38,394 nt of DNA from Chloroflexota bacterium (GTDB taxonomy: Bacteria > Chloroflexota > UBA11872 > UBA12225). The translations under genes were made by a program, and so were the position numbers. Where the stretch lies: positions 1-38,394 of the forward strand of contig BJHB01000001.1 in assembly GCA_014191415.1 (NCBI GenBank). Direction: 5' to 3'. Shown piece after piece: positions 3,313 to 33,940 of the stretch. A model generated the notes under the pieces. It searched no databases, was not told the origin of the DNA, and worked only from the letters and a program-made list of their open reading frames with translations. How positions within the stretch are numbered: position 1 is the first letter of the stretch; every line of letters starts with the position of its first letter.

Positions 3313-4590
3313 TCAGTCGCGTGTTGGAATGGTCCGGGCCACCCGGCGTCGCACCAAAGCGAGAACCAGTCCAAAGCCAATACCGGCACCGGCATAGGGG
3401 AGGTAGGTGAGTGGGTCGGGTCCGGCCCAAACCGATCCGTCACCGGTATTCGGCATGCTCTTCGGCAGGACCGATGGCCCCGAAGCACCCGTGCCTCGTG
3501 AAACCGCTTCCGAAGCACCCCCCACCACCGCACCCGACGGGGGCTTTGAACCCTGTGCCTGTGGTGCCGGTCCGGCGGGACGCGTTGCCGGAACCATCTG
3601 GACTGGTGCTACCGCAATCGCGATTGGTCGCGAGCCGACATTCACGATCTTGGACTGTTCCAGACGAGCCATGTTGATCACCGAGACGGTGTTGTCCTGG
3701 TTGTTCGCCACATACCCGAAAGCACCGTCCGGTCCAATCGCGATACCCACCGGTCGCTTGCCAACCGCAATCGTCGCAACCGCCTTCCGTGAAGCCGGAT
3801 CGACGACCGTGACATCATTCGAGATGCTGTTGCTGACGAAAATCCGCCCATCGGGCGCAATCGTCAACCCGAGCGGGGTCAGCCCAACGGGTACCGACGC
3901 GGCAATCTTTCCAGAAGCGACTTCGACGATCGCCAGTGAATTTGTCTCAGGAACAACGGCGTAGAGGGTGCCACCGTCGGACGTCAGTGCCATGGCAACA
4001 ACTGGATTACCCATTGGGATTGGAGCACCGACACGGTCGCCATCGTCAACCGGATAGACGTTGGAATTGCCTTCGAGTGCGACGTAGGCCCGGTTGCCTG
4101 ACCGGTTCGCAACGAGGGCGATCGGCTTGCCGGGAACCTGAACGGCCTTCACCCGGGCACCCACCGCGTCTATGGTCACGATCTCACTACCTGGACCCTC
4201 GGCGACCATTGAAAATGTCGCATCGGCCGGAGCCACGACCGCTTCAGGTGCCTTGCCAACCCGCGTCGTGTTCGAAACCTGATAGTAGTCGCGGTCAATC
4301 GCCGAGACCGTCCCATTGCCACGATTGGCCACGAACGCGATACGTCCGTCCGGCGTAACGGCAACCCCACGAGGCGCAGGACCAACGGGCACGGTCACAA
4401 GGACCGTATTGCCGACATGTTCGATGACCGAGACAGAACCCGATCCTTCATTGGCCACATAGACCGTGCCAACGCCATTCGCTCCTGCCGGCAAGGCCGG
4501 GAGACCAGCCGCTGCCAGGCCGGCAACTGCAGCCAGCACCATTCCGGCACGCGTGATCTGTGCCCGCACAAAGCGTCCGTTTCGCGCCAC
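3313..4590 (-). CDS. secreted YVTN-type beta-propeller repeat protein with C-terminal sortase sorting signal
   Basis: N-terminal signal-like segment (MVLAAVAGLAAAGLPALPAGA). At least 5 repeats of the pattern P.G.A..PDG...YVAN...N.VSVID. C-terminus is MPNTG (3442-3456), then a hydrophobic stretch (AGAGIGFGLVLALV), then RRRVAR. GTG start with GGAGGAAG upstream. Confidence 0.8.
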   Translation of the reverse strand: MARNGRFVRAQITRAGMVLAAVAGLAAAGLPALPAGANGVGTVYVANEGSGSVSVIEHVGNTVLVTVPVGPAPRGVAVTPDGRIAFVANRGNGTVSAIDRDYYQVSNTTRVGKAPEAVVAPADATFSMVAEGPGSEIVTIDAVGARVKAVQVPGKPIALVANRSGNRAYVALEGNSNVYPVDDGDRVGAPIPMGNPVVAMALTSDGGTLYAVVPETNSLAIVEVASGKIAASVPVGLTPLGLTIAPDGRIFVSNSISNDVTVVDPASRKAVATIAVGKRPVGIAIGPDGAFGYVANNQDNTVSVINMARLEQSKIVNVGSRPIAIAVAPVQMVPATRPAGPAPQAQGSKPPSGAVVGGASEAVSRGTGASGPSVLPKSMPNTGDGSVWAGPDPLTYLPYAGAGIGFGLVLALVRRRVARTIPTRD

Positions 4591-4636: not shown

Positions 4637-4993
4637 TCAGGATACCTGCGAAAGCAATGCACTCAAAGGTGCGTTGGGATCGCCGGTATCTATTGGAGCG
4701 GGCGACCCAGTCGCACGCGCCTGTTGGGCATCAAGTTCGTACAAGAACACCAGAAGTTCGGCAATCGCCGTGTACAAGGCTGGCGGTATTGCCTGACCGA
4801 CCTCGAGATGAGAAAGGGCCATGGCGAGTGCCGGATCATGCTCGACAGGAACACCATTCGCCTCGGCCATCGCCACGATTTCGTCGGCAAGGAACCCCCG
4901 ACCGGACGCGGCAATCACCGGGGCCTCGGCGCGACCATTCGAACCCGGAGTCCACGGTAGCCCTCCGCGCAACGCAACCGCGACTTTTCTCAT
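4637..4993 (-). CDS. free-standing FlhB C-terminal-domain-like protein (EscU/YscU/HrcU family, YlqH-like)
   Basis: 118 aa matching the FlhB C-terminal fold pattern: KVAVAL....APVIAASGRGFLADEIVAMAEANGVPVEHDPALAMAL...GQAIPPALYTAIAELLVFLYELD. No transmembrane domain and no NPTH autocleavage motif. Confidence 0.85.
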   Translation of the reverse strand: MRKVAVALRGGLPWTPGSNGRAEAPVIAASGRGFLADEIVAMAEANGVPVEHDPALAMALSHLEVGQAIPPALYTAIAELLVFLYELDAQQARATGSPAPIDTGDPNAPLSALLSQVS

Positions 4994-5089: not shown

Positions 5090-7285
5090 TTACAAGCCCA
5101 TGTCAACCCGGCGGACCACGGCACGTCCGGCATCAGACGGCGCAACCACGAGCGGCCGATAGTCCAGTCCTTCCACGGAAAAGCCTGCACCTCGAAGCCG
5201 GTCAAGCAAGCCATCACCATTCTGTTGCAGAAGTGCGTAGGTGTCCTCCCGATCGGCAGTCAACCGGCAGCGCAAGCTAGTGCCAATGATTCGGATGTCG
5301 GCACCGACGCGACCGAGAGATTCCATATCGAGACGCATCCGGGCGTGCAATCCCGTACTCGACTCTTCCGGTCCATCCTGCCGACGCCCGCCATCCCGCC
5401 AAACTGCCAACTCAAGCGTAGTCAACTGTCCAGCGAATGCCAACGGAATGGAAAAATTCAGCGCATCACCCGGAGCTGGGATCGGGATATTGGTCGGAAA
5501 CGCAGCCGGAGTGCCATCTGGTCGCACGCCAGCGGTGGTGGAGGCCGGCGTGCCTGCGGTGGTGCCCGCCGGAGATTGCCCAGTCGATGGTTGGGCATCC
5601 CAGCCACCACGCGACAGCGTCGCCGAGTTTCCGAGTTGCTGGTATTCCAGCCGGTCATGAAGGACACGGGCAAGCATCGCCGCGGGCGTGCCTCCTCCAC
5701 GGTCCGGGGTCCCCGCAGTCTGCCCCGCAAGTGTCTGCGGGTTAGGTGGCGGACTTGCCATCGTTGAGGACGTCGGCCCCGGCGCCGTCGGCAAGCTCGA
5801 AGCGCCACTGCCCCCAAGCATCGTCAGCAGGGCACCAAGCACCGTCCGCGCATCCGCACCCGCGGTTGCCCATGTCCCAACACCGATCGGGATTGCACCC
5901 ATCATCGCGATTGGCAAGGGTGGCAACGCGCCTGGCACCGGTATTGCCGGAACACCGGTTGCGGAGATGCCAATCTGCAGTGGGGGCGGTGTTGCCTGAC
6001 CGACTGTCGATGCCGTGCGCGTACCGCCCCCAATCGAACCCGTGGCTCCCTCCACGGTACCGACTGACCCAACCTGCACCCCGCCAGACCCAACCACCGA
6101 TGTCGCACCTGTGCTCAACGATGGGGCAGGTAGCGGACCCGCTTGCGAATCCCCCGCCGGCAAACCGGTCGGAAGCGTGGCCGGTGCAACCGATCCCGTT
6201 GCGACCGCCGCACTCGAACCATTGGCACCTGCCCCGGTAGCAACCGCCTCACTCGCCCCTGACGAATCGACCGCCATCGCAATTAACCGGGCCAGACGCG
6301 CCTCCGGTGCACCCTGCAACACCGATACAACCCGTTGCAGTTCGGATCCCGTGGGCGACTGCACCACCATCGACGCAAGCAGGCGCATCAGCGCGCCTCG
6401 AGTTGTCTCACCGGGCACACCGCCGAGAGTGCCGGTAGCCACCTGACCGGGCAACGTTCCGGGCGTTGCACTTCCGGAAGACCCTCGTGAACCGCCACGC
6501 GAGCCTTCAGTTGCACCATCCAAGGAATAGTCAAGCGCGCCAGGCGGTGCACTGTCTATCGCGACGATAAGTTCTCGGAAGAGGTCTCCCATCGGGGCCG
6601 CAACCGCGCCAGACGCCCCCGCCCCACGTGCCAACGAAGCACTTCGCGCCGTAACCGGGATCCCGCGCAGCATGGCATCGACCGCGCCGCGGGCGTTTGT
6701 CAGTTCCTGGCCACTGTCGCGCGCCACCACAGCCCGCAGCGCCACGATCGTTTCGCGCGTCAGGGGTTGACCGCGTTCGACGAGCGCAGTGACAACCGCC
6801 CGGGTCGCCGGCGTGTCGGGCAGGTCGAGCGCCCGAAGGACCGCACTGGGATCGAGCGGCGCCGTAGGGGTGCGGGCAGGCGACCCACCCCCCTCCACCA
6901 ACCTCAACACGAGACGCTCAGCCGATACCGTGGAGACAGATAGGTTGACTACCTGGCCCTCGTGCAGTCCATCTGGAACCTCGGCCGCGACCCGCTGGCC
7001 ATCCATGAGCAAGAGGGCGCGGCCCGCCGCTGCATCTGTCACAAGGACCTGCGCAGAGATCTGCTGACCCACCCGAAGGTTCTGGAATGGAGATGCGCCG
7101 GCACCATTCAGGCCTGTCCCGGCAATCGGGGGGATCCAAAGGACGGCGGGCGAAGAAGCACTGATTGCGCCGACCCCGCCGACCAAACCAGGTGCGGATG
7201 CCGTGCCCGAACCGACAGACACCCCGCCGCTACCGAGGCCGGGGGTCGTCCCGGACAACCCCCGGGAGGAACCCGTGGAACTCAT
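5090..7285 (-). CDS. FliK-like protein (second hook-length-control paralog), Gly/Ala/Ser/Thr/Pro-rich
   Basis: The C-terminal ~100 aa resemble the Flg_hook domain (FSIPLAFAGQLTTLELAVWRDG...LHARMRLDMESLGRVGADIRIIGTSLRCRLTADREDTYALLQQNGDGLLDRLRGAGFSVEGLD). Long low-complexity centre. ATG start without an obvious SD. Confidence 0.65.
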   Translation of the reverse strand: MSSTGSSRGLSGTTPGLGSGGVSVGSGTASAPGLVGGVGAISASSPAVLWIPPIAGTGLNGAGASPFQNLRVGQQISAQVLVTDAAAGRALLLMDGQRVAAEVPDGLHEGQVVNLSVSTVSAERLVLRLVEGGGSPARTPTAPLDPSAVLRALDLPDTPATRAVVTALVERGQPLTRETIVALRAVVARDSGQELTNARGAVDAMLRGIPVTARSASLARGAGASGAVAAPMGDLFRELIVAIDSAPPGALDYSLDGATEGSRGGSRGSSGSATPGTLPGQVATGTLGGVPGETTRGALMRLLASMVVQSPTGSELQRVVSVLQGAPEARLARLIAMAVDSSGASEAVATGAGANGSSAAVATGSVAPATLPTGLPAGDSQAGPLPAPSLSTGATSVVGSGGVQVGSVGTVEGATGSIGGGTRTASTVGQATPPPLQIGISATGVPAIPVPGALPPLPIAMMGAIPIGVGTWATAGADARTVLGALLTMLGGSGASSLPTAPGPTSSTMASPPPNPQTLAGQTAGTPDRGGGTPAAMLARVLHDRLEYQQLGNSATLSRGGWDAQPSTGQSPAGTTAGTPASTTAGVRPDGTPAAFPTNIPIPAPGDALNFSIPLAFAGQLTTLELAVWRDGGRRQDGPEESSTGLHARMRLDMESLGRVGADIRIIGTSLRCRLTADREDTYALLQQNGDGLLDRLRGAGFSVEGLDYRPLVVAPSDAGRAVVRRVDMGL

Positions 7286-7405: not shown

Positions 7406-8122
7406 TCACTTGCGCAAGGCTCGGACGACCACTCGCGAGTCGTATCGCCGAGAAACCGGATTCCACTTGCCGCCGCAGGTGATAAGCGTCAATCCGTAGG
7501 CGACGATAGGTTCAAACACAACCTTCGGCGCAGCCCCGTCTGCCGGAAACTCTCGATGCCACTCAACGTCGTACTTGTGTTCCACACCATCCGCCCCGCG
7601 AATGATCACCGGATCCCCAGACTTGGCCGAGGCGAGTTTGTTGAACACACCCGGCGCCCCCTGCCAGTCAAGATGCCCGGCCAGGATCGAGTTTCCCCGT
7701 AGCCCCGGGCGCGGGCTGTACTCAAACCACCCGATCTCCCCCGCGCGCTTTGGCACGTCCATCGAACCGTCATTCGTCAGACCAACCGCCACGACCGGCG
7801 CATCAACGCCGATCGACGGGATTGCCATGTACAGGGGCAACTCAAGGTGATCTATCGTCTTCGCCTTGGCGGTACTCGACCACGTCTTGATGCCAGGCAC
7901 CGGTGTCGGCGCGGGGGCACTCGCAGTCTGGGTGGCTGGAGCCTTCCGCGACCAAGGCAGGCCATCTCGAACAACCAGCACGCTACCCGCACCGAGAAGC
8001 GCTGCAAAACCCGCCGATCCGCCGACTAGGGCACGGCGTGTCCGCTTGTCATCCCATCGGGACGGCGGAGGCGTGGGTGTCGTCTGTTGGTCGGTCATTG
8101 CCATGGATGGCCCACGCCGCAT
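7406..8122 (-). CDS. membrane-anchored sortase (class E/F-like transpeptidase)
   Basis: Candidate catalytic residues: His in ILAGHLD, TLITC motif in LTLITCGG, Arg in SRVVVRALR. N-terminal TM anchor (ALVGGSAGFAALLGAGSVLVV). The ORF-track TTG start at 8206 lies inside the flgE terminator U-tract. In-frame ATGs at 8122, 8104 and 8098 are more likely, but none has a clear SD. Confidence 0.8.
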   Translation of the reverse strand: MRRGPSMAMTDQQTTPTPPPSRWDDKRTRRALVGGSAGFAALLGAGSVLVVRDGLPWSRKAPATQTASAPAPTPVPGIKTWSSTAKAKTIDHLELPLYMAIPSIGVDAPVVAVGLTNDGSMDVPKRAGEIGWFEYSPRPGLRGNSILAGHLDWQGAPGVFNKLASAKSGDPVIIRGADGVEHKYDVEWHREFPADGAAPKVVFEPIVAYGLTLITCGGKWNPVSRRYDSRVVVRALRK

Positions 8123-8203
8123 GACGCCATGCGGTTGAACCCTTTCCACAAGTATCGGGTGCAATCTCAGGGTCTGAAGTGGCGGAGCCCTTGTTGAAGG
8201 CAC

Positions 8204-8245
8204 CAAAAGCCGACGGGCGCCACCTCCGAGGAGATGGCGCCCGTC
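8204..8245 (-). terminator. intrinsic terminator after flgE
   Basis: Perfect 11-bp stem (8212-8222 GACGGGCGCCA / 8235-8245 TGGCGCCCGTC) with a 12-nt loop. On the minus strand it is followed, after 3 nt, by UUUU (plus-strand A4 at 8205-8208). Confidence 0.65.
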
Positions 8246-11353: not shown

Positions 11354-13621
11354 TTAGTCCGGACGACCAATGGTTCCCGGGTTTGTCACGGTTGCTGACG
11401 CCAACGCCCGGCGTCCGCCATACGCTCCAAGTCCCGCACTGACCCGCGATTGCACCCCGAGGGCACGCGTCACGCTTGAAATCGATTCCCCGGACGCACG
11501 AAGGTTCTCGCTTCCGGCATCGGTTGCGGTCGGCGCTGCCAGCGGTGCCACCACTGGTTGCACGTCGAACGGTTGCCCGTTCTGATCGAAGTAGACCCTG
11601 CCAAAGAAACTGTTCGCCCACTCGCGCCCGCCGTCGCCGGCTTCGGATTGAGGTCCAGCCTGATCGGACCCCCTCTGGGTTCCCTGTTCTCCCTGCCGAC
11701 TGGGCTGCCTGCCCGCCTGGTCATCAGTCCGCTCGCGCAGACCCACATCCATGCGCTCCAGTCTGAGTCCGGCCTCGCCAAGCGAAGCACGCAACTGGGG
11801 CAGGGCCGTCTCAAGCGCCTTGCGTGCCTCGGGGGTCGAGGTGGTGAGATCCACACCGATCGATCCCTGGCGCAGCGTAAGGCGAATGGTCAGTGGTCCG
11901 AGATTTTCCGGCGAAAGCCGGAGAGTGAATTGGCGTGCCTCGCCGGCACCAGTCAGACGCGCGACACGCACGAGGACTGGGGCGACCTGATCATGCAACT
12001 CATCACCGAACGAAGTGCCCGGTGTGGTGCTGGTCGCGGACGCGACATCTGCCAGATTTGAACGCGCCGCCGACTGCATTCCTGAGCCGGTAGCGCCTGC
12101 TGAACCGGTTGTGCCAGAACCAGTCACGGGAGCAGCCGGGGCCGCTTGGACGTCATCGCCATCAACTGCCGACGCCTGAGCGCCTGCACCTGATGCGCCT
12201 GCCGCACCCGAAACAGCTGAGACCATCCCTGCCTGCAAGGTCGGTACGCCCTCTGCATCGCCCGAGGCAAGCCCCGGATCGGCGATACCAGACGCATCGA
12301 CACCCGCTACCCGTTGGCCCGTCCCTGATGACGCAACTGGCGCCACGATTGGCACCACCGTCGCAACACCTGCCTCAGCCACGGCAATGACGGCCGCGCC
12401 TGACGCATCGGAGAGTGCCGCCGTTGCCGCCACCGGAGTGGCGGTGACCACGTCGGCAACCTCAGCCTGAGCCTGAGCCGCTGCAACCGAAGCCTGAGCG
12501 GGCGCGGTTGCCACTGGGGCCTGCGCCTCCTCGTCAGCCGCGGTTGCCAAGGCCGATGCCAAAGCGCCAAAGACACCTGCACCATCCAGTGACACGCCAC
12601 CTGTCGTCAGGTCCGTCGGCACGATGGCCGGGGCGGAACCGTCGACGGTCAACGTGGCACCCATCTGGCGCAGCGCGACGAGCAACCCGGCAAGGGACGT
12701 CTGATCGGAAGGAGTACCGGTCAGCGTGGGCATCTCCGGAATCGTGCCGTCGAAGGCACTCGTCAGGAGCATTCCCAGTTCAACCGTTCCCGATCCGCCA
12801 GTCATTGCCTCGGCGACCTGCCCCAAAAGAACCTGGATGGCATTCGACAAGGCAGGGGCCACTTCGGCGATGGCCCCGTCAATCGCGGCCGGATTGCCGG
12901 TAGCCACGGCCTGTTCAATGCGGTGGGACGCCGCGTCAACCGCGCCGGCAGCATTCGCCGGTGTCATGACGGGAGATCCACCACTTGAACGAGACTCGGA
13001 ACCACCCGACGAAACGGTCGGATCTGGGCGCGCTGACGCCTGCACCGAGGCCTCTCCTGCGCTCCGCGCCGCTGCGTTATCGGCAAGGCGATCCGCCGCG
13101 TCGGCCTTGACCTGCCGGGCGCGTTCAAGCGCACGGGAGACCCGACCAACCGACCTCATCGCACTCGCGACGTCACGTCGGAGCGAACTACTTCGAGACC
13201 GCGACGCATCCGACCCTTGGGAGCCGGAAGCTGGACCCGCCTGGGGTATTCCCTCATTCGAGGGCAATTCGTGGGCGCTCGAACTGCCAACGGTTGCCTG
13301 TGGCGCCAGACCCGCCACGACGGCATCCCGGGTTTCCGACTGGCCTCGGCCGACCCGGGAAGAGACGATGCGCGCAAGCACGGAAGCAAAGCGCGGCCGA
13401 TTCCCGGCGACCGAACCCAATCCACTACTTGGCGAACCTGTCGCGTCGCCACTTGCGGTCGCCGACTGCACACCACCCGGGCCAACGCCCGAGGCACCGC
13501 GCACACCTGAAACCGCCTGCAACGCACGAGCGGACAACGCGCTCCCTCCCAACCCCGAGAGCGCAAGACTCTCATGGGCTGCCGAAGCACCCTTGCCCAA
13601 CGATGGGACAGACCTGCCCAT
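11354..13621 (-). CDS. fliK: flagellar hook-length control protein FliK
   Basis: Flg_hook domain FTLRLSPENLGPLTIRLTLRQGSIGVDLTTSTPEARKALETALPQLRASLGEAGLRLERMDV. Ala/Ser/Gly-rich N-terminal ruler region. Start set to ATG 13621 with AAGGAG 6 nt upstream (ccgaaAAGGAGcgaatATG). The 13759 extension is Arg/Trp/Cys-rich. Confidence 0.85.
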   Translation of the reverse strand: MGRSVPSLGKGASAAHESLALSGLGGSALSARALQAVSGVRGASGVGPGGVQSATASGDATGSPSSGLGSVAGNRPRFASVLARIVSSRVGRGQSETRDAVVAGLAPQATVGSSSAHELPSNEGIPQAGPASGSQGSDASRSRSSSLRRDVASAMRSVGRVSRALERARQVKADAADRLADNAAARSAGEASVQASARPDPTVSSGGSESRSSGGSPVMTPANAAGAVDAASHRIEQAVATGNPAAIDGAIAEVAPALSNAIQVLLGQVAEAMTGGSGTVELGMLLTSAFDGTIPEMPTLTGTPSDQTSLAGLLVALRQMGATLTVDGSAPAIVPTDLTTGGVSLDGAGVFGALASALATAADEEAQAPVATAPAQASVAAAQAQAEVADVVTATPVAATAALSDASGAAVIAVAEAGVATVVPIVAPVASSGTGQRVAGVDASGIADPGLASGDAEGVPTLQAGMVSAVSGAAGASGAGAQASAVDGDDVQAAPAAPVTGSGTTGSAGATGSGMQSAARSNLADVASATSTTPGTSFGDELHDQVAPVLVRVARLTGAGEARQFTLRLSPENLGPLTIRLTLRQGSIGVDLTTSTPEARKALETALPQLRASLGEAGLRLERMDVGLRERTDDQAGRQPSRQGEQGTQRGSDQAGPQSEAGDGGREWANSFFGRVYFDQNGQPFDVQPVVAPLAAPTATDAGSENLRASGESISSVTRALGVQSRVSAGLGAYGGRRALASATVTNPGTIGRPD

Positions 13622-13862
13622 ATTCGCTCCTTTTCGGATGCATGGCAATCGCAACGCCAGCGGCGCCACGGCTTGCCGGAACCAACCGACCATTTCCCAG
13701 GATGACCTGGCCGGTCTTCGACCCACGCATCTGTCCCTGTCCGCGTGAATCGCCCCCACAACCTATGGGGATCAGAACCGCTCAACCCGCAATCCCGGAC
13801 GTGCCGCGATTGCTCCGGAGTGACCCAACTCTGATCCCGATAGACTCGTGTGCTTCTATTCA

Positions 13863-13893
13863 GTTATACCATACGCCCCGGCCATTCTGTCCA
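13863..13893 (-). promoter_or_regulatory. candidate sigma-70-type promoter upstream of fliK
   Basis: On the minus strand: TGGACA (13888-13893), 19-nt spacer, extended -10 TGgTATAAC (-10 hexamer at 13863-13868). The spacer is long and this is a pattern match only. Confidence 0.2.
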
Positions 13894-13999
13894 GCCATCG
13901 ATTGCCACGCTGACGCCGCTGGCTTCCTCCGACGCCACACGCCAAGGCTTCCACTGAACATCAGATAAAAGCTCCCTCTGGACAGCCCGCAAAGGGCAC

Positions 14000-14470
14000 C
14001 AGGCGCACATCCATGTCACCTGCGGTTTCCACTTGTGCCATCCTTGGCATTCCGGGGATAACGTCGCACCTGCGACGCACCACCAACCGCGCCATCCATG
14101 CAGCGGCCAGCCACTCCGCATCCTTGCGGACCAACGTCGCCTGGAGGCCGAGCCGGAGATCAGTTTCCCGACCTCAAACACCACCCCTGGACAACGCCAC
14201 TCCCTTGCCACCAGCCATCCATGGCCACGCTTTGTCGCGTCCCGTCATGGGTTGACAACAATCCGGCACATCCCGGTCCCGGAAAATCGCGCGCTCTGCC
14301 CCCCAACCGTCTCCGGCCTGGCAACCACGCTCAGGCCCGACCCTCCATGGCCGGACCAGGGCTTCAATGCCCAAGTTAGGTGCGGACCATTCCTTCGGCC
14401 CGTCTACCCGGCTGGCACATCCTTGAGCCAGACCCCGCCTGCCCAGCCGTCCGTGGCCGGGCAATCCATC
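14000..14470 (-). ncRNA. candidate structured RNA with multiple hairpin-loop A(A/U)GGAUG motifs (CsrA/RsmA-binding-like); boundaries unknown
   Basis: No credible ORF in this stretch. Seven GGAUG on the operon-sense strand (plus-strand CATCC at 14008, 14039, 14093, 14119, 14216, 14268, 14418). Six of them sit in loops of 4-6 bp hairpins. The motifs occupy all three codon phases. The sense strand is strongly G-rich. Confidence 0.35.
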
Positions 14471-14537
14471 GACATCACCAACACCACTCTGCGCCTGACA
14501 GGGCGCACTCGATGACATGCCAGTGATTCGTGCTGTG

Positions 14538-14555
14538 AAAAAACACTAGTAAGTG
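14538..14555 (-). terminator. weak terminator-like element directly after the flgB stop
   Basis: On the minus strand: CACU-uacu-AGUG (4-bp stem, 14544-14555) followed by U6 (plus-strand A6 at 14538-14543). The stem is too short for confident termination. Confidence 0.2.
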
Positions 14556-14987
14556 CTAGCGCCTGCCCTCGTAGATCGCCTGGCGCAACTGAGCAAACTT
14601 GAGGTTGGTGAACGTTGTCGCTGCCGAGAACTGAAGCTGTGTCTCTGCAAGGCGAACCATCTCGCGGTCCACGTCGACGTTGTTCCCATCGTTCCGGTAC
14701 GTCAAGCCGTCCTGAACCTGGGACTTCGCCTGAACCAATCCGACGTCCTGCCTAAGGGCCCCACCAGGCATGTGCGCGCCATCAGTGACGACCATCTGGA
14801 AGTCATCAGCAACCGGGCGGAGGACCGCCGCCTGCAGTTCTTGCTCAAATGTCACTTCAGCCGACTTGAAACCTGGCGTATCGATGTTGGCAACGTTGTT
14901 GGTAATCGCCTTGCTTCGGAGGCTCAAGCCGTCAAGCGCCTTGGTAATGGCGCCGAATGCATAGTCGTTGCGGATGAGATTTGGCAT
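14556..14987 (-). CDS. flgB: flagellar basal-body rod protein FlgB
   Basis: N-terminal LSLRSKAITNNVANIDTPGFKSAEVTFEQEL. C-terminal DGNNVDVDREMVRLAETQLQFSAATTFTNLKFAQLRQAI. Both are typical of FlgB. Confidence 0.9.
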   Translation of the reverse strand: MPNLIRNDYAFGAITKALDGLSLRSKAITNNVANIDTPGFKSAEVTFEQELQAAVLRPVADDFQMVVTDGAHMPGGALRQDVGLVQAKSQVQDGLTYRNDGNNVDVDREMVRLAETQLQFSAATTFTNLKFAQLRQAIYEGRR

Positions 14988-15006
14988 GGTTCAACTCCCC
15001 GTTCGT

Positions 15007-15651
15007 CTACGAGCCGGCCCGACGCAACTGGTCGCGCGTCTGAAGGACCTTGCGGACATAGTTCTGCGTCTCGGCAAACGGCGGCGTGCCACCGTACTTC
15101 TCTACCGTTCCCGGACCCGCGTTGTAGGCAGCCAACGCCTTGGTCACGTCACCACCAAAGCGGTTCAGCATTTGCCGGAGATACCTGGCCCCACCGGTCG
15201 CGTTCTGCATCGGGTCAAAGGAGTCGATGACCCCGACGGATCGCGCCGTGCCGTCCATCAACTGCATCAGGCCCTTGGCTCCGGCGTGCGAGACGGCGTT
15301 TGCATTGCCCCCCGATTCCACCTTTGCCACGGCGCGGACCAGGTCCGGATCAACCCCCTCACGGGCAGCGGCGGCCCTGAGTTCATCTTCGAAGCGCCCG
15401 ACCACCGGGTTGGCAGACCCGGGACCGCGCGCAATGTCCCCGGCTCGGGTGGACGGCACCACTGCCATGGTGCTGTCCACCCGCGGCCGGATAGGGAGGG
15501 AGAAGGAAACACCGAGGCGGCGGGCACGGTCAAGTGCCGCTTGCACGAACGTCGCGTGGATGGTCCGGAGTGCGCTGCCATCGCTCACCGGACCGGCGAC
15601 GTCGTACGACCGTCTCGACAGGCTGTCCGAAAGTGGCCCTGTCGTTCCCAT
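15007..15651 (-). CDS. SLT-domain lytic transglycosylase embedded in the flagellar operon
   Basis: SLT motifs AVAKVESGGNANAVSHAGAKGLMQLM (catalytic Glu-Ser) and AAYNAGPGTVEKYGG. ATG overlaps the fliJ stop (TAATG at 15649-15653). No N-terminal hydrophobic signal. Confidence 0.85.
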   Translation of the reverse strand: MGTTGPLSDSLSRRSYDVAGPVSDGSALRTIHATFVQAALDRARRLGVSFSLPIRPRVDSTMAVVPSTRAGDIARGPGSANPVVGRFEDELRAAAAREGVDPDLVRAVAKVESGGNANAVSHAGAKGLMQLMDGTARSVGVIDSFDPMQNATGGARYLRQMLNRFGGDVTKALAAYNAGPGTVEKYGGTPPFAETQNYVRKVLQTRDQLRRAGS

Positions 15652-22504: not shown

Positions 22505-22588
22505 TCGTGCCTCCGACCGCAAATCTCACACCGACAAATCGCGTGGTGTGCCCTTGCGGAGAAGCATAGGTGTGGGGGTTGTCCGCCT

Positions 22589-22665
22589 CTATCGGGGATT
22601 CCCCTATAGGCCGTCCGTCGTATGGTGGAGAGACCGGGAAACTGGTCGGAAATCACCTGATTTCC
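22589..22665 (-). promoter_or_regulatory. two palindromes in the flgC upstream/leader region
   Basis: 22589-22609 is CTATCGGGGA-T-TCCCCTATAG (10-bp arms, 1 mismatch). 22648-22665 is GGAAATCA-CC-TGATTTCC (perfect 8-bp arms). Both lie between the upstream terminator and the flgC SD. Confidence 0.3.
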
Positions 22666-22873
22666 CCTGAATCTTCCCGTCCACACCCCTACCGGACCCT
22701 GCGTGAACACCGTTCCCGCCCCATGGCGATCAAGATCACCAGGCACGATGCGGGGTGGGCGATGATCGCCAATCAACCCGTCAGATCGCAACGGATCGCC
22801 ACTTCGATACCCAGACCGGAACGCGCCGATGCTGCTTGATGGCGCACGGAAGGTCGTTGGTCACTGATGGCGC

Positions 22874-22908
22874 ATCAAAACAAACAGGCCGCCTCAATGA
22901 GGCGGCCT
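22874..22908 (-). terminator. intrinsic terminator after the coiled-coil repeat gene
   Basis: Perfect 10-bp stem (22886-22895 AGGCCGCCTC / 22899-22908 GAGGCGGCCT). Followed on the minus strand by a U-rich tract (GUUUGUUUUG, plus 22874-22885). Confidence 0.75.
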
Positions 22909-22934
22909 GGCGCAAACTGGGGGGTTGCAGTTGA

Positions 22935-24800
22935 TCAGGCGTCGGTCGTCAGGTTGAGGACGCCGTCGATATCGCTGACAAATCGCAAACGAACTCCATC
23001 AAGCTTGGTGAGGCGTCCACGGAGGGGCACCACTACCTTGTGGGAGATCTCAAGCGTGAGGATCCCGCGCTCATACCCGTTTGCCTTCGCCTCACTGACC
23101 CCATCAACCTGCGCAATCGTGCGTTGCAGGGCCAATGCGCGGGAGAACCCGGGAACTCCGGCAATGACCACCGTAGTGCGCACCATGGCGTCCGGATCAC
23201 TGCCTTCCGGAACCTCCACGTGATGGTCATCATCGGCTTGATCCGAATCAGGTTCGGGTACCTCAGGGCCACCCTCGTCCGTGATGTCTTTCATTGCAGA
23301 GTCGACAAGGTCGCCATCCGGTGACGTGTGTTCGGCTGCCTCCTCGGCGTGTTCCTCGGGAGCTTTCTGGGCTTCGGCTTGGGCGGCCTCTTCGGCAGCG
23401 TGCTGGGCGGCCTCTTCGGCAGCGTGCTGGGCGGCCTCTTCGGCAGCGTGCTGGGCGGCCTCTTCGGCAGCGTGCTGGGCGGCCTCTTCGGCAGCGTGGC
23501 GTGCGGCCTCTTCGGCAGCGTGGCGTGCGGCCTCTTCGGCAGCGTGGCGTGCGGCCTCTTCGGCAGCGTGGCGTGCGGCCTCTTCGGCGGCGTGGCGTGC
23601 GGCCTCTTCGGCGGCGTGGCGTGCGGCCTCTTCGGCGGCGTGGCGTGCGGCCTCTTCGGCGGCGTGGCGTGCGGCCTCTTCGGCGGCGTGACGCGCAGCT
23701 TCCTCAGCCGTCCGGCGTGATGCCGCGTCCGCCTCGTGGCGGGCGGCATCCTCAGCGGCGCGTCGGGCGCCTTCCTCGGCCGCGTGGCGGGCCGCCTCTT
23801 CCGCAGCGTGACGCGCAGCTTCCTCGGCTGTCCGGCGTGATGCCGCGTCCGCCTCGTGGCGGGCAGCCTCCTCAGCGGCACGACGGGCGGCATCCTCGGC
23901 CGCGTGGCGGGCCGCCTCTTCCGCAGCCGCTCGCGCGGCCGCACGTTCCGCCTGTGCCTGGGCATCGGCGGCCGCCCGATCGGCGGCAGCGCGTTCAGCG
24001 ATAGCCCGCGCCTCGGCAACCGCGCGCTCAGCCGCCGCAACGTCAGCGGAGATGCTCGTGGAAGCTCGGGCCGGAGCCGACCGCGTCCCCTGGATACCAC
24101 TCACCAAGCTGCTCAGGGTAGCCTCTGTCGCGGCTCCGCCCGATTGCTTCGGTGGCAGGATCCCACTCAGGCTGCCGCGCAGCGACTGGATCTGGCTGTT
24201 CAGGAAGTTGTCAATCATCCCCTGTATGTGCCCGACACGCTCCTCAAGGGCGCGCGCTTCCTCTTCCAGTTCGTTCTTCCGCGTCTGCGCACGCGAGATC
24301 ATCAACTCAACCGCGTTGGCAGCCTCGGACCGGAACTTGTCGATGTCCGCGATCTCGATCGCCCGCCGGTTGGCGAGCTCCTCATCCATCTGCTCGCGGC
24401 GGATCGTGTGTTCGGTATCCAGCGCCGCAGCCTTGCGGCTCAGCTCCTCTTCCTGAATGCGGAGGCGAACCGAAAGCTCGGTCTCCTGCTCGGTCCGCCG
24501 GCGATTGAACTCTTCCTCGAGCTCGTGACGGGTCCGGCGAAGTTCGCTGATCTCCTCAAGAAGACGGAGACGGTCGGCTTGCAGGCGACGCATGTACGCG
24601 TCGGCATCCTTCTCGACATCACTGCGAATGTCGGCCGCGCTCCGCAAGGCATACGAGATCTCATCCCGGATTGCCCGCTCCATGCGGTCGTACAGCTCCA
24701 ACCGGCGCCTAGCCCAGTCGTGCGTGATCCGCAGTTCCTCGGCAGATGCCTCGGGGGTGGAACCGCCACCCTTGGTCTCGTCACGTTCGCCTTGCGTCAT
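22935..24800 (-). CDS. coiled-coil protein with AEEAA(R/Q)HA octapeptide tandem array and a small globular C-terminal domain
   Basis: 621-aa ORF. ATG with GAGG about 8 nt upstream. N-terminal ~200 aa have heptad-like Arg/Glu/Leu-rich coiled-coil character. Central Ala/Glu/Arg/His repeats. The C-terminal ~90 aa are non-repetitive (VVIAGVPGFSRALALQRTIAQVDGVSEAKANGYERGILTLEISH...). No family recognised. Confidence 0.75.
   Translation of the reverse strand: MTQGERDETKGGGSTPEASAEELRITHDWARRRLELYDRMERAIRDEISYALRSAADIRSDVEKDADAYMRRLQADRLRLLEEISELRRTRHELEEEFNRRRTEQETELSVRLRIQEEELSRKAAALDTEHTIRREQMDEELANRRAIEIADIDKFRSEAANAVELMISRAQTRKNELEEEARALEERVGHIQGMIDNFLNSQIQSLRGSLSGILPPKQSGGAATEATLSSLVSGIQGTRSAPARASTSISADVAAAERAVAEARAIAERAAADRAAADAQAQAERAAARAAAEEAARHAAEDAARRAAEEAARHEADAASRRTAEEAARHAAEEAARHAAEEGARRAAEDAARHEADAASRRTAEEAARHAAEEAARHAAEEAARHAAEEAARHAAEEAARHAAEEAARHAAEEAARHAAEEAARHAAEEAARHAAEEAAQHAAEEAAQHAAEEAAQHAAEEAAQHAAEEAAQAEAQKAPEEHAEEAAEHTSPDGDLVDSAMKDITDEGGPEVPEPDSDQADDDHHVEVPEGSDPDAMVRTTVVIAGVPGFSRALALQRTIAQVDGVSEAKANGYERGILTLEISHKVVVPLRGRLTKLDGVRLRFVSDIDGVLNLTTDA
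23382..23926. repeat. in-frame tandem repeats: 24-bp unit x12 perfect (+1 variant), then 120-bp unit x2
   Basis: The 24-bp units form three blocks of four identical copies: GCGGCCTCTTCGGCAGCGTGCTGG (23382-23477), ...CAGCGTGGCGT (23478-23573) and ...CGGCGTGGCGT (23574-23669). A variant unit follows (23670-23693). The 120-bp copies are at 23687-23806 and 23807-23926, differing at a few positions. Confidence 0.95.
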
Positions 24801-31442: not shown

Positions 31443-31697
31443 GTCATTGCTCCCCGCACCTCCCGGGCGTTCGCCAACGGGTCGGAGGGCAAGTCTACGA
31501 AACTCAGGGGATTATTCGCCCTCGTACCCCTGAATACGGGGCGTTTACACGACCGATGATGAACGTGAACGTAATCGCACTGGGGCTCCGGAAGCACCGG
31601 GACCACTCACAGAGAACGGACACCGAAAGTCTGGCCGGACAATCGTAAGTCCCCTGGCCGCACCAGTTAGATTTCGCGCCAAAGGCGCACGTTTCCT

Positions 31698-31742
31698 TGT
31701 GGCATGGAGGTCACAGGGCCGCAGCGATAGGGAGATCCGGCA
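31698..31742 (+). promoter_or_regulatory. flagellin 5' leader with two GGA elements (hairpin-loop GGA plus GGA in the SD)
   Basis: UGUG-GCAUGGAGGU-CACA hairpin (31698-31715, GGA at 31706-31708). SD AGGGAG at 31729-31734, 8 nt before ATG 31743. Confidence 0.35.
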
Positions 31743-32642
31743 ATGGCTTTGCGTATCAACTACAACCAAGCGTCCTCACAGGCGCAGCGTGGGGTTTCTG
31801 GGGCACAGAACTCCTTCTTCAGCGCGATCTCGCAGCTTTCGAGCGGATTGCGGATCAACAAGGCAGCCGATGACTCTGCCGGTCTGGCTGTCAGCGAGAA
31901 GCTCAAGAACCAGGTTCGTGGTCTCAACCAGGCCCAGCGGAATGCCCAGGATGCGATCAGCCTCCTGCAGACCGCCGAAGGCGCACTCAACGAGGTGCAC
32001 AGCATCCTCGGTCGGATGCGTGAGCTGGCCGTGCAGTCGGCGAACGACACCCTGACCAATTCCGACCGTGCCCACATCCAGAACGAGGTCAACTCGCTCC
32101 TTTCAGAGGTCGACCGGATCGGCAATTCCACCCAGTTCAACAGCATCCAGTTGCTGAACGGAGATGCTTCAGGTCCCTTGAACCTCGCAGGGTTCACCTT
32201 CCATGTCGGTGCAAACACTGATGTGCCGACTGCCTCGAACGAGATCGCGTTCACAATCGGCGACTCCGCCCTTGGCTACACTGGTGGCACAAATGGTGTG
32301 ATCAACTCGACGACCTTGGCGGGTGTCAATGCGCTTGCGACGACGGGTGTTGCAACCCAAACCGACGCGAACGCAGCCATCGCCACGATCGACACCGCGG
32401 TTGAAGCCGTATCCGGCTACCGTGGCGCCATCGGTGCGATGCAGAACCGCCTCGAGAGTGCGATCAACAGCATCGGGGTCGCAGCTGAGAACACCGGCGC
32501 CGCGAACAGTCGCATCCGCGATGCCGACGTTGCCCAGTCTGTCTCGGAGATGATCCGCAGCCAGATCCTCCAGCAGTCATCGATGGCGGTCCTCGCCCAG
32601 GCCAACCAGGCTCCGCAGTCCGTCCTCCAGTTGCTCAAGTAA
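31743..32642 (+). CDS. fliC: flagellin
   Basis: Conserved N-terminus MALRINYNQASS...LSSGLRINKAADDSAGLAVSEKL...LQTAEGALNEVHSILGRMRELAVQSAN. Conserved C-terminus MQNRLESAINSIGVAAENTGAANSRIRDADVAQSVSEMIRSQILQQSSMAVLAQANQAPQSVLQLLK. Short Ser/Thr-rich variable domain (299 aa total). Confidence 0.97.
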   Translation: MALRINYNQASSQAQRGVSGAQNSFFSAISQLSSGLRINKAADDSAGLAVSEKLKNQVRGLNQAQRNAQDAISLLQTAEGALNEVHSILGRMRELAVQSANDTLTNSDRAHIQNEVNSLLSEVDRIGNSTQFNSIQLLNGDASGPLNLAGFTFHVGANTDVPTASNEIAFTIGDSALGYTGGTNGVINSTTLAGVNALATTGVATQTDANAAIATIDTAVEAVSGYRGAIGAMQNRLESAINSIGVAAENTGAANSRIRDADVAQSVSEMIRSQILQQSSMAVLAQANQAPQSVLQLLK

Positions 32643-33025: not shown

Positions 33026-33301
33026 ATGGTTACCAAGAAAGATCACGAGCTCGACCTGCAGGCCGCCGACCACCACCGCAAGGCTGCGCATCACTTTGAA
33101 GTCGCCGCACATGAGCACATCAAGGCGGCAGCGGCCGATGAGCACGACGACCATGTGACTGCCGCTCACCATGCCCACCTGGCTTACGGGCACCAGATCG
33201 AAGCTGTGCGCCACGCCGAGATTGCAGCCGTCAAGGAAGAGCACTCGGATCCCGATGACGAGGACCATGGCAAGCCAGAGGACCACGTCGCGGATCACTG
33301 A
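33026..33301 (+). CDS. small His-rich helical protein (paralog A, 91 aa)
   Basis: ATG 33026 with GGAG 8 nt upstream. About 19 of 91 residues are His, in HHxxAAxH-type spacing (ADHHRKAAHHFEVAAHEHIKAA...AAHHAHLAYGHQIEAVRHAEIAA), with an acidic tail. Conserved against paralog B mainly through synonymous changes. Confidence 0.7.
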   Translation: MVTKKDHELDLQAADHHRKAAHHFEVAAHEHIKAAAADEHDDHVTAAHHAHLAYGHQIEAVRHAEIAAVKEEHSDPDDEDHGKPEDHVADH

Positions 33302-33664: not shown

Positions 33665-33940
33665 ATGGTCACCAAGCGTGAACACGAACTGGACCACGAC
33701 GCCGCCGATCACCATCGCAAGGCAGCCCACCACTTCACCGTCGCCGCCCACGAACACCTGAAGGCCGCCGAGGCCGATGCGCATGACGATCATGTCGGCG
33801 CCGCCCATCATGCCCATCTTGCGTACGGTCATCAGATCGAAGGCATTCGCCATGCCGAGATCGCAGCCGTCGAGGAAGAGCATGCCGATCCTGAAGACGA
33901 GGATCACGGACACCCCGAGGATCACGTCGCCGATCATTGA
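33665..33940 (+). CDS. small His-rich helical protein (paralog B, 91 aa)
   Basis: ATG 33665 with GGGAG 7 nt upstream (the ORF-track ATG 33659 is too close to the SD). Same length as paralog A. By hand alignment, 15 substitutions in 91 aa. Confidence 0.7.
   Translation: MVTKREHELDHDAADHHRKAAHHFTVAAHEHLKAAEADAHDDHVGAAHHAHLAYGHQIEGIRHAEIAAVEEEHADPEDEDHGHPEDHVADH

Follow-up and report, generated by a model that had tools for sequence, protein, structure and literature searches.

We analysed a 38,394-nucleotide (nt) stretch of DNA from a Chloroflexota bacterium (GenBank assembly GCA_014191415.1, contig BJHB01000001.1, positions 1 to 38,394; hereafter the window) and found, between its flagellar genes flgB and fliK, an array of short hairpins on the minus strand that display GGA in their loops. 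The array lies in a 934-nt spacer (13622-14555) between the flgB stop and the fliK start. On balance, and with modest confidence, we favour the reading that it is a multi-site CsrA-binding RNA inside the operon, which would act as a sink for CsrA and would also feed into the control of fliK. Support for CsrA as the ligand comes from motif statistics, a design conserved among relatives, selection on the hairpins, a matching hairpin in the flagellin leader, and agreement with the consensus in the literature.

The preliminary description of this DNA had counted seven GGAUG pentamers on the minus strand of the spacer, six of them within the octamer CA[AU]GGAUG, and our recount agrees. The start coordinates of the six octamers modulo 3 (1, 0, 2, 0, 0, 2) place them in all three phases, as had been claimed, and GGAAUG, GGAUUG and AUGGAGGG (14341-48) were located where they had been reported. 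All listed sites exist, with one off-by-one error in position (plus-strand CATCC at 14269, not 14268). Chance expectations were obtained from dinucleotide-preserving shuffles (5000 for motif counts and 1000 for loop counts). GGAUG alone is about two-fold enriched, which is marginal (7 versus 3.4 expected, a count reached by 233 of 5000 shuffles); the earlier estimate of about one by chance was too low. The octamer (6 versus 0.11 expected), ANGGA (14 versus 4.6) and CANGGA (9 versus 1.5) reach counts that none of the 5000 shuffles attains. When only loops of hairpins with at least 4 base pairs are considered, ANGGA occurs 13 times on the sense strand versus 1.8±1.3 expected (0 of 1000 shuffles) and not once on the antisense strand of the spacer, and the spacer is the densest and top-scoring region of the 38-kb window for this feature. 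The motif array is real and beyond chance.

The preliminary description had placed the motifs within about 415 nt. This core was confirmed, but the array reaches beyond it, to about 13879-14479, with 15 hairpins defined between 13879 and 14464:

13879..14479, minus strand: hairpin array of 15 short, mostly G+C-rich GGA-loop hairpins, 8 of them CANGGANG
14418-25, 14216-23, 14119-26, 14093-100, 14039-46 and 14008-15, minus strand: CA[AU]GGAUG octamers
14439..14464, minus strand: H1, UUGCCCGGCC-ACGGAC-GGCUGGGCAG, -18.9 kcal/mol alone (z -4.9), pairs kept in relatives
14412..14431, minus strand: H2, CUGGC-UCAAGGAUGU-GCCAG, folds alone, pairing checked in relatives
14383..14402, minus strand: H3, CGGGCCG-AAGGAA-UGGUCCG, with G-U to G-C changes in relatives
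14334..14357, minus strand: H4, GGUCCGGCC-AUGGAG-GGUCGGGCC, -16.3 kcal/mol (z -3.9), same hexaloop as the flagellin-leader hairpin
14305..14318, minus strand: H5, GGCC-GGAGAC-GGUU, pairing checked in relatives
14262..14283, minus strand: H6, UCCGG-GACCGGGAUGUG-CCGGA, pairing checked in relatives
14212..14227, minus strand: H7, UGGCCA-UGGA-UGGCUG, includes CAUGGAUG, folds alone
14156..14175, minus strand: H8, GAGGUCG-GGAAAC-UGAUCUC, with one compensatory C-G to U-A change
14115..14130, minus strand: H9, UCCGCA-AGGA-UGCGGA, includes CAAGGAUG, isolated fold z -4.4
14082..14111, minus strand: H10, GCUGGCCGC-UGCAUGGAUGGC-GCGGUUGGU, folds alone
14036..14049, minus strand: H11, UGCC-AAGGAU-GGCA, folds alone
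14000..14022, minus strand: H12, CAGGUG-ACAUGGAUGUG-CGCCUG, folds alone
13962..13980, minus strand: H13, CAGA-GGGAGCUUUUA-UCUG, pairing checked in relatives
13911..13937, minus strand: H14, UGGCGUCG-GAGGAAGCCAG-CGGCGUCA, two pairs with compensatory changes
13879..13897, minus strand: H15, UGGCU-GGACAGAAU-GGCCG, loop resembling the fliK-leader loop

Nine hairpins were folded in isolation, including the six proposed originally, and each gave the proposed stem-loop, with the loop in the form of either a hexaloop A(C/U)GGA(C/G) or an A-U-closed NGGA tetraloop. The median spacing of the GGA sites is 28-34 nt. The sense RNA has a minimum free energy (MFE) of -287 kcal/mol (z -3.5), compared with -211 kcal/mol (z -1.7) for its complement.

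The spacer is non-coding, as originally proposed. Its longest sense-strand open reading frames (ORFs; 114 and 115 amino acids) have no Pfam match, and indels break the frame: they are 1, 2 and 4 nt long in close relatives, and indels of 5 and 10 nt occur right up to the fliK AUG in more distant ones. No gene is missing, since the flgB-fliK spacer of Chloroflexota outgroups (FlgB 51-56% identical) is only ~107 nt long. Thus, neither frame-preserving evolution nor protein-family homology, the marks of a coding gene or pseudogene, was seen, and a check for homology evidence of a decayed protein-coding gene, a possibility raised in the preliminary description, found none.

FlgB scans of genomes and metagenomes yielded 160 loci for comparison. 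Every locus with a FlgB identity of 72% or more keeps the array, and these loci form three lineages: the window group (FlgB 95-99%), loci L005, L095, L094 and L004 (~73%), and L009 (72%). Array-bearing loci have 7-14 ANGGA in loops per spacer versus 0.9-2.1 expected; for CANGGANG the counts are 5-9 per spacer versus 0.3-0.7 expected, with 0 of 1000 shuffles reaching the count in each of seven lineage representatives. Full-length array spacers measure 515, 613, 616 and about 937 nt (two more are truncated by contig ends), and the array sequences are barely alignable between lineages. At FlgB identities of 56% or less the array is absent or weak, and most such relatives have only a leader of ~107 nt. 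Neither the array nor its hairpins were found elsewhere in all loci examined (~1 Mb). Compared with L005, L095 has lost ~80 nt of array exactly between two identical CCCGGCACGGAUGCCGGG hairpins (L095 9098-9130; L005 6450-6580), thus suggesting that array units are lost or gained by recombination between repeats. As a separate observation, the flgB-fliK spacer of L006 (Chloroflexota, FlgB 56%; 4443-4540) holds a long inverted repeat, made of three GTAGGCA units and their complement, a structured leader of another kind in the equivalent position.

Across 12 distinct close relatives, 96% of the cells of the 15 hairpins are paired, versus 25-45% when the partners are slid by 1-3 columns; in the diverged lineages the corresponding values are 91% and 25-47%. 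Most pair changes in the close relatives are from G-C to G-U or from G-U to A-U, and three pairs change on both sides. With so many G-C to G-U changes, pairing is possible only on the minus-strand RNA. The covariation test in syntenic relatives that had been suggested earlier therefore has a mixed outcome, in that pair retention and one-sided G-U changes speak for the hairpins while strict covariation is sparse and diverged sequences are few. The fraction of variable columns rises from the GGA cores (0.14) through loops (0.21) and stems (0.26) to linkers (0.41), and the third codon positions of flgB, taken from the same sequences, reach 0.45. GGA, loops and stems being less variable than flgB synonymous sites, the hairpins, and above all their GGA cores, are under purifying selection, and the linkers drift almost neutrally.

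Two descriptions of the CsrA recognition element bear on the identity of the ligand. The consensus obtained by systematic ligand evolution through exponential enrichment (SELEX) is RUACARGGAUGU, its GGA standing in a loop of six bases that AC/GU closes (PMC7652899), and the CsrA/RsmE element has also been described as CANGGANG-containing apical hexaloops (PMC4894983). The array consensus CA-N-GGA-N-G fits this published element, in agreement with the original identification of the loop motif, and 9 of the 10 positions of ACAUGGAUGU in H12 agree with the SELEX consensus. CsrA is found in most phyla (PMC13443453). Based on these sequence comparisons, we infer that CsrA is present in the host and binds the array.

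The same hairpin type recurs in the leader of the flagellin gene of the window:

31743-32642, plus strand: flagellin gene, 17 kb from the spacer
31695..31718, plus strand: flagellin-leader hairpin CCUUGUGGC-AUGGAG-GUCACAGGG, with CAUGGAGG in the hexaloop, -13.3 kcal/mol
31729..31735, plus strand: flagellin Shine-Dalgarno AGGGAGA, its GGA 25 nt downstream of the hairpin GGA, AUG at 31743

The loop of this hairpin is identical to that of H4. In two genomes unrelated to that of the window, flagellin leaders carry hairpins of the same type as the array units. In L165 (DCUX01, 50% GC, in a cluster with an SLH-domain protein), flagellin lies directly downstream of fliW-csrA and its leader has CCGCC-ACGGAC-GGCGG before AAGGAGG. 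In L167 (Limnochordales), flagellin lies ~0.9 kb downstream of fliW-csrA, with a DUF6470 gene between, and its leader has GCCGGC-ACGGAG-GCCGGC, a near match to unit 1 of L005 and L009. The match between these three flagellin leaders and the units suggests that the array units are multiplied copies of a flagellin-leader CsrA hairpin. The window flagellin leader is also like the BS1/BS2 arrangement of B. subtilis hag (PMC7652899, PMC13443453), in that a GGA hairpin is followed by a Shine-Dalgarno GGA, here 25 nt apart, and the units of the array resemble copies of the BS1-type hairpin. In the 101-nt MFE fold of the flagellin leader, an upstream UUUCCUU pairs with the Shine-Dalgarno sequence and competes with the CAUGGAGG hairpin; the leader may be two-state, as judged from this model.

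The reading that we favour would work as follows. Pairs of neighbouring loops, ~30 nt apart, would each bind one CsrA dimer, so that one transcript could hold several dimers, and the array would be a CsrB/RsmZ-like sink built into an mRNA. Transcription of the hook-basal-body operon would then draw CsrA off other targets, among which flagellin mRNA, having the same hairpin and a GGA Shine-Dalgarno, would be the obvious one. At the same time, the array might raise the local concentration of CsrA on the fliK leader. The number of dimers bound, the titration of CsrA and the direction of the effect on fliK are predicted here.

Several points weigh against this proposal. Neither csrA nor fliW was found in the window, in locus L161, which extends it 10 kb beyond its left end and carries gidA, gyrA and moaC, or within ±6-10 kb of flgB in relatives of the same lineage; the csrA search used tblastn with E. 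coli and B. subtilis CsrA and a hidden Markov model made from 26 CsrAs, run on the window and all loci translated in six frames. Protein-database searches with a CsrA sequence, a CsrA profile and FliW found csrA-fliW only in Limnochordales, other Firmicutes and unlabelled loci, and the tetranucleotide correlation of csrA-fliW loci with the window is at most 0.89, versus 0.97-0.99 within the same lineage. The published sources consulted name no csrA for this clade, and the sole literature support for csrA is a set of Chloroflexota metagenome-assembled genomes (MAGs), including TK10, in which csrA ORFs were reported and not attributed to particular MAGs (PMC11650866). Both-sided covariation in the array amounts to 3 pairs in the window group and 1 pair in the diverged groups, and the hairpin structures used in the pair counts were derived from the same sequences. 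Lastly, a sink co-transcribed with hook genes would free flagellin translation early, which has no obvious fit to the checkpoint logic of Bacillus.

Downstream of the array, the last ~270 nt of the spacer (13622-13877) form a second element, a structured fliK leader, which the preliminary description had not distinguished. Its features, together with the gene itself, are:

13860..13867, minus strand: conserved A(C/U)AACUGA box at the array/leader boundary, AACUGA invariant across the three lineages
13760..13846, minus strand: long-range helix enclosing a small hairpin domain, core GGGAUCAGAG (13829-13838) with UUCUGAUCCC (13768-13777)
13719..13752, minus strand: fliK-leader hairpin with a near-invariant 14-nt loop GGACAGGGACAGAU (13729-13742)
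13627..13633, minus strand: fliK Shine-Dalgarno AAAGGAG, which includes GGA, conserved in all lineages; AUG at 13621-13619
13605..13612, minus strand: UCUGUCCC, fliK codons 4-6, exact complement of GGGACAGA in the leader loop
11354..13621, minus strand: fliK, 755 amino acids, Pfam Flg_hook 4.5e-19, followed by flgD and flgE

This leader aligns across all three lineages, with 16% of columns variable and 10% in the last 156 nt. RNAalifold predicts 69 pairs in it, of which 17 have compensatory changes, including U-A to C-G and C-G to G-C changes in the long-range helix (alignment columns 32-52/98-118 and 69-74/80-85). The stem of the 13719-13752 hairpin covaries as well (A-U to G-C; -14 kcal/mol, z -3.5). 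The fliK start at 13621 holds, since MGRSVPSLGKG at the N-terminus is conserved and the indels before it do not come in multiples of three; a GUG start further upstream, at 13759, was rejected on account of the indels of 5 and 10 nt that precede the AUG. The A(C/U)AACUGA box is a single-stranded, AU-rich stretch in an otherwise G+C-rich spacer. It was rejected as a promoter, its distance to the next conserved block varying by 5 nt between lineages, and may be a site of RNA processing.

The loop GGGACAG(A) is complementary to (U)CUGUCCC at fliK codons 4-6 both in the array clade and in array-less outgroups (L007, L096-L100), with duplex energies of -11 to -19.5 kcal/mol that 0.1-1% of loop shuffles reach. 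Pairing of the loop with the start region could be a gate on fliK translation, but both sides are invariant and the pairing is therefore not proven. The array-less outgroups have a covarying hairpin with apical GCGAAAGGGACAGCG (GGGACA loop) and a AAAGGAAAGGAGG Shine-Dalgarno before fliK, so that fliK control looks ancestral. Two sequence features expected of a CsrA-controlled leader are seen here, namely a GGA overlapping the Shine-Dalgarno of the regulated gene (AAAGGAG) and a further GGA hairpin loop upstream (13719-13752, with the array further upstream). Since there is no terminator between them, array and fliK leader should be on one transcript.

These data bear on the strongest alternative, a purely cis-acting leader, in which CsrA or another factor bound to the array would control only the translation, stability or elongation of fliK-flgD-flgE, with no meaningful titration. 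We give it a minor but appreciable share of the probability. The array is contiguous with a conserved structured leader (16% and 10% variable columns, versus 45% at synonymous sites) that has its own GGA-loop hairpin and GGA Shine-Dalgarno; the outgroups keep the GGGACA-loop hairpin and AAAGGAAAGGAGG in the absence of an array, and the spacer has neither promoter nor terminator. Against these stand ~15 sites distributed along 600 nt, at a density close to that of CsrB and with ~260 nt between the Shine-Dalgarno and its closest site, and a gain and loss of whole hairpins between lineages, which is more in keeping with a copy-number-type function than with a precise switch. Known CsrA-controlled leaders (glgC, pgaA, hag) have 2-6 sites, far fewer than the array; in the glgC, pgaA and cstA leaders these lie within about 100-230 nt. 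The latter three resemble the fliK region in having GGA sites upstream of and overlapping the Shine-Dalgarno, but differ from an array of ~15 sites over 600 nt followed by a separate structured leader.

The position of the array in the operon bears on whether it could be an RNA gene of its own. The gene order on the minus strand is flgC-fliE-fliF-fliG-fliH-fliI-fliJ-SLT transglycosylase-flgB-spacer-fliK-flgD-small flagellar ORF-flgE, and the features that delimit the transcription unit are:

22885..22909, minus strand: canonical intrinsic terminator, 11-bp stem then UUUGUUUUGA, upstream of the flgC leader, marking the start of the transcription unit
14556..14987, minus strand: flgB, 143-amino-acid rod protein, Pfam Flg_bb_rod 4.2e-06, the gene directly upstream of the spacer
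14480..14555, minus strand: variable segment after the flgB stop, a long imperfect hairpin, 57% of columns variable in 12 close relatives
8212..8245, minus strand: canonical terminator after flgE, 15-bp stem then U-run, the likely end of the unit

No intrinsic terminator was found in 13300-15100, nor any sigma-70-like promoter, in a scan that is blind to other sigma types. Because canonical terminators bracket flgC-flgE while the spacer has neither signal, the array is most likely transcribed inside the flgC-to-flgE operon. Only ~20 nt separate the flgB stop codon from the first hairpin in L005 and L009, too little for a promoter outside coding sequence, and the segment 14480..14555 has no counterpart in these loci. 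A U-run after flgB was considered as a terminator and rejected (the stem is only 4 bp and the U-run is not conserved in L002, L003 and L092).

In design, the array is similar to CsrB/CsrC and RsmX/Y/Z/W (Rfam CL00106), which also consist of many short GGA-loop hairpins in variable number. GGA density is 4.2-5.6 per 100 nt in the arrays versus 6.0 in E. coli CsrB by the same measure, and, as in a sponge, many GGA are exposed in loops or single strands. Neither a sigma-70-like promoter nor a rho-independent terminator, which a sponge would have of its own, was found in 13300-15100. The CsrB motif is CAGGAUG whereas that of the array is CANGGANG, and CsrB and RsmZ are independent genes whereas the array belongs to the flagellar operon of a Chloroflexota whose flagellar cluster is Firmicutes-like. 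Rfam gave no gathering-level match in the window, L005, L009 or L095. The sequence data are thus best read as an array that is CsrB-like in design and not homologous.

It is unlikely, in our estimation, that the array is a free-standing small RNA (sRNA) gene or a stable species cut out of the operon transcript, perhaps at the A(C/U)AACUGA box. Its architecture and GGA density do resemble CsrB/RsmZ, the best sub-threshold Rfam match was RsmW (weak and far below threshold: 18.6 bits versus a gathering value of 52, E = 2.2), the 3' edge of the array coincides exactly with the conserved single-stranded AU-rich box, and a stable hairpin follows the last GGA unit in L009 and L005. What speaks against it is the lack of a sigma-70-like promoter in or upstream of the spacer and of a terminator, although the genome has canonical ones, and the position of the first hairpin in L005 and L009. 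The preliminary description had offered three forms (free sponge, 3' untranslated region or leader); the free sponge is the least supported of them, and the array is best read as a segment within the operon, upstream of the fliK leader.

A ligand other than CsrA is a rather improbable alternative. Another RNA-binding protein could be bound, or the GGA motifs could be Shine-Dalgarno mimics (AAGGA, GGAGG) holding 30S subunits through the anti-Shine-Dalgarno, with no part for CsrA. The failure to find csrA in the window-lineage sequence examined is consistent with this, as are the likeness of the loop motifs to Shine-Dalgarno sequences and the G-rich RNA (plus-strand GC skew about -0.26). Nevertheless, the conserved core has the geometry published for CsrA/RsmE, with CA-N-GGA-N-G in a hexaloop or an A-U-closed tetraloop, and is more specific than a likeness to Shine-Dalgarno sequences (PMC4894983, PMC7652899), and the same hairpin type stands in flagellin leaders adjoining csrA-fliW in two other genomes. 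That the spacer is non-functional, a decayed gene or a local pile-up of palindromes like repetitive extragenic palindromic (REP) elements, is very improbable: ORFs of 114-115 amino acids can be drawn in it and unit number varies by recombination between repeats, but the ORFs lack Pfam matches, the outgroup spacer is ~107 nt, indel lengths do not keep to multiples of three, it is the loops that are conserved and the stems that vary (in REP elements it is the other way round), the hairpins have no copies elsewhere in ~1 Mb of loci, unlike dispersed REP elements and bacterial interspersed mosaic elements, and GGA cores and hairpins vary less than synonymous sites.

Among known systems, the leader of C. 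jejuni flaA, a dual-function mRNA that also titrates CsrA through two hexaloops (PMC4894983), would be the nearest precedent for the CsrA sink that we favour. In both cases CsrA sites lie on a flagellar mRNA, in CANGGANG hexaloops, and are tied to flagellum assembly, but flaA has two hexaloops in flagellin's own leader whereas the array has ~15 hairpins in a 600-nt intercistronic region upstream of fliK, and may be regarded as a roughly seven-fold scale-up. The Salmonella fim leader is similar to flaA as a dual-function mRNA. No RNA antagonist is known for the partner switch of CsrA, FliW and flagellin in B. subtilis (PMC7652899, PMC13443453). In the literature consulted, sRNAs that antagonise Csr are reported only in Gammaproteobacteria and are anticorrelated with fliW (PMC7652899, PMC4894983), which upholds the earlier statement that no multi-site RNA antagonist is established in FliW-type systems. 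Our literature search found no report of a comparable array elsewhere.

The surroundings of the operon have some further features. The sole flgB is not the first gene of the operon but stands after fliJ and the SLT transglycosylase gene (15007-15651), and a ~360-nt non-coding leader (22523-22884, minus strand) precedes flgC. Immediately upstream of the operon, a gene for a 621-amino-acid protein without a Pfam match (22935-24800, minus strand), with a long tandem run of AEEAARHA-like repeats, ends at the canonical terminator. Directly past the flgE terminator are a sortase-domain gene (7406-8206, minus strand), a gene for a second FliK-like (Flg_hook) protein of 731 amino acids (5090-7285, minus strand) and a short ORF (4637-4993, minus strand) that matches only the C-terminal part of FlhB; this appendix is unusual for the flagellar cluster of a bacterium without an outer membrane. 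Downstream of flagellin are two paralogous His-rich ORFs of 91 amino acids (MVTK…HELD…HH…; 33026-33301 and 33665-33940, plus strand), each with its own upstream region.

Flagellar genes are carried by freshwater Chloroflexi of the CL500-11 and TK10 clusters (PMC6169038), and a phylogenetic study of flagellar proteins from Chloroflexota covered the GTDB class UBA2235 of that phylum (PMC10284905). The window makes up nearly all of a 39.9-kb metagenomic scaffold (ENA ERZ28619560, MEHR18-4…scaffold_218), and its FlgB shares 99% identity with the FlgB of 'Chloroflexi bacterium UBA2235' and with that of lake MAGs. The array provides a concrete RNA element to annotate in an abundant, uncultured lake lineage, and the claim made for it can be tested directly in vitro with synthesised CsrA and the 600-nt transcript. 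In the literature consulted, CsrA is controlled in two separate and anticorrelated ways, by sponge sRNAs in Gammaproteobacteria and by the protein FliW in flagellated lineages elsewhere (PMC4894983, PMC7652899). We tentatively suggest, as a possibility that we hold below even likelihood, that the array is the first RNA antagonist of CsrA outside Gammaproteobacteria, which would have arisen independently in freshwater Chloroflexota through the multiplication, within the rod/hook operon, of a CsrA hairpin of flagellin-leader type. By being transcribed, the hook-basal-body genes would themselves set the level of free CsrA and time the synthesis of flagellin and FliK, as an RNA checkpoint alongside the FliW switch or in its place. 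If this is true, the sink would be physically tied to flagellar gene transcription, duplication of a target-mRNA hairpin would be suggested as a route by which such an RNA can originate, and the sequestration of CsrA by RNA would have evolved more than once.

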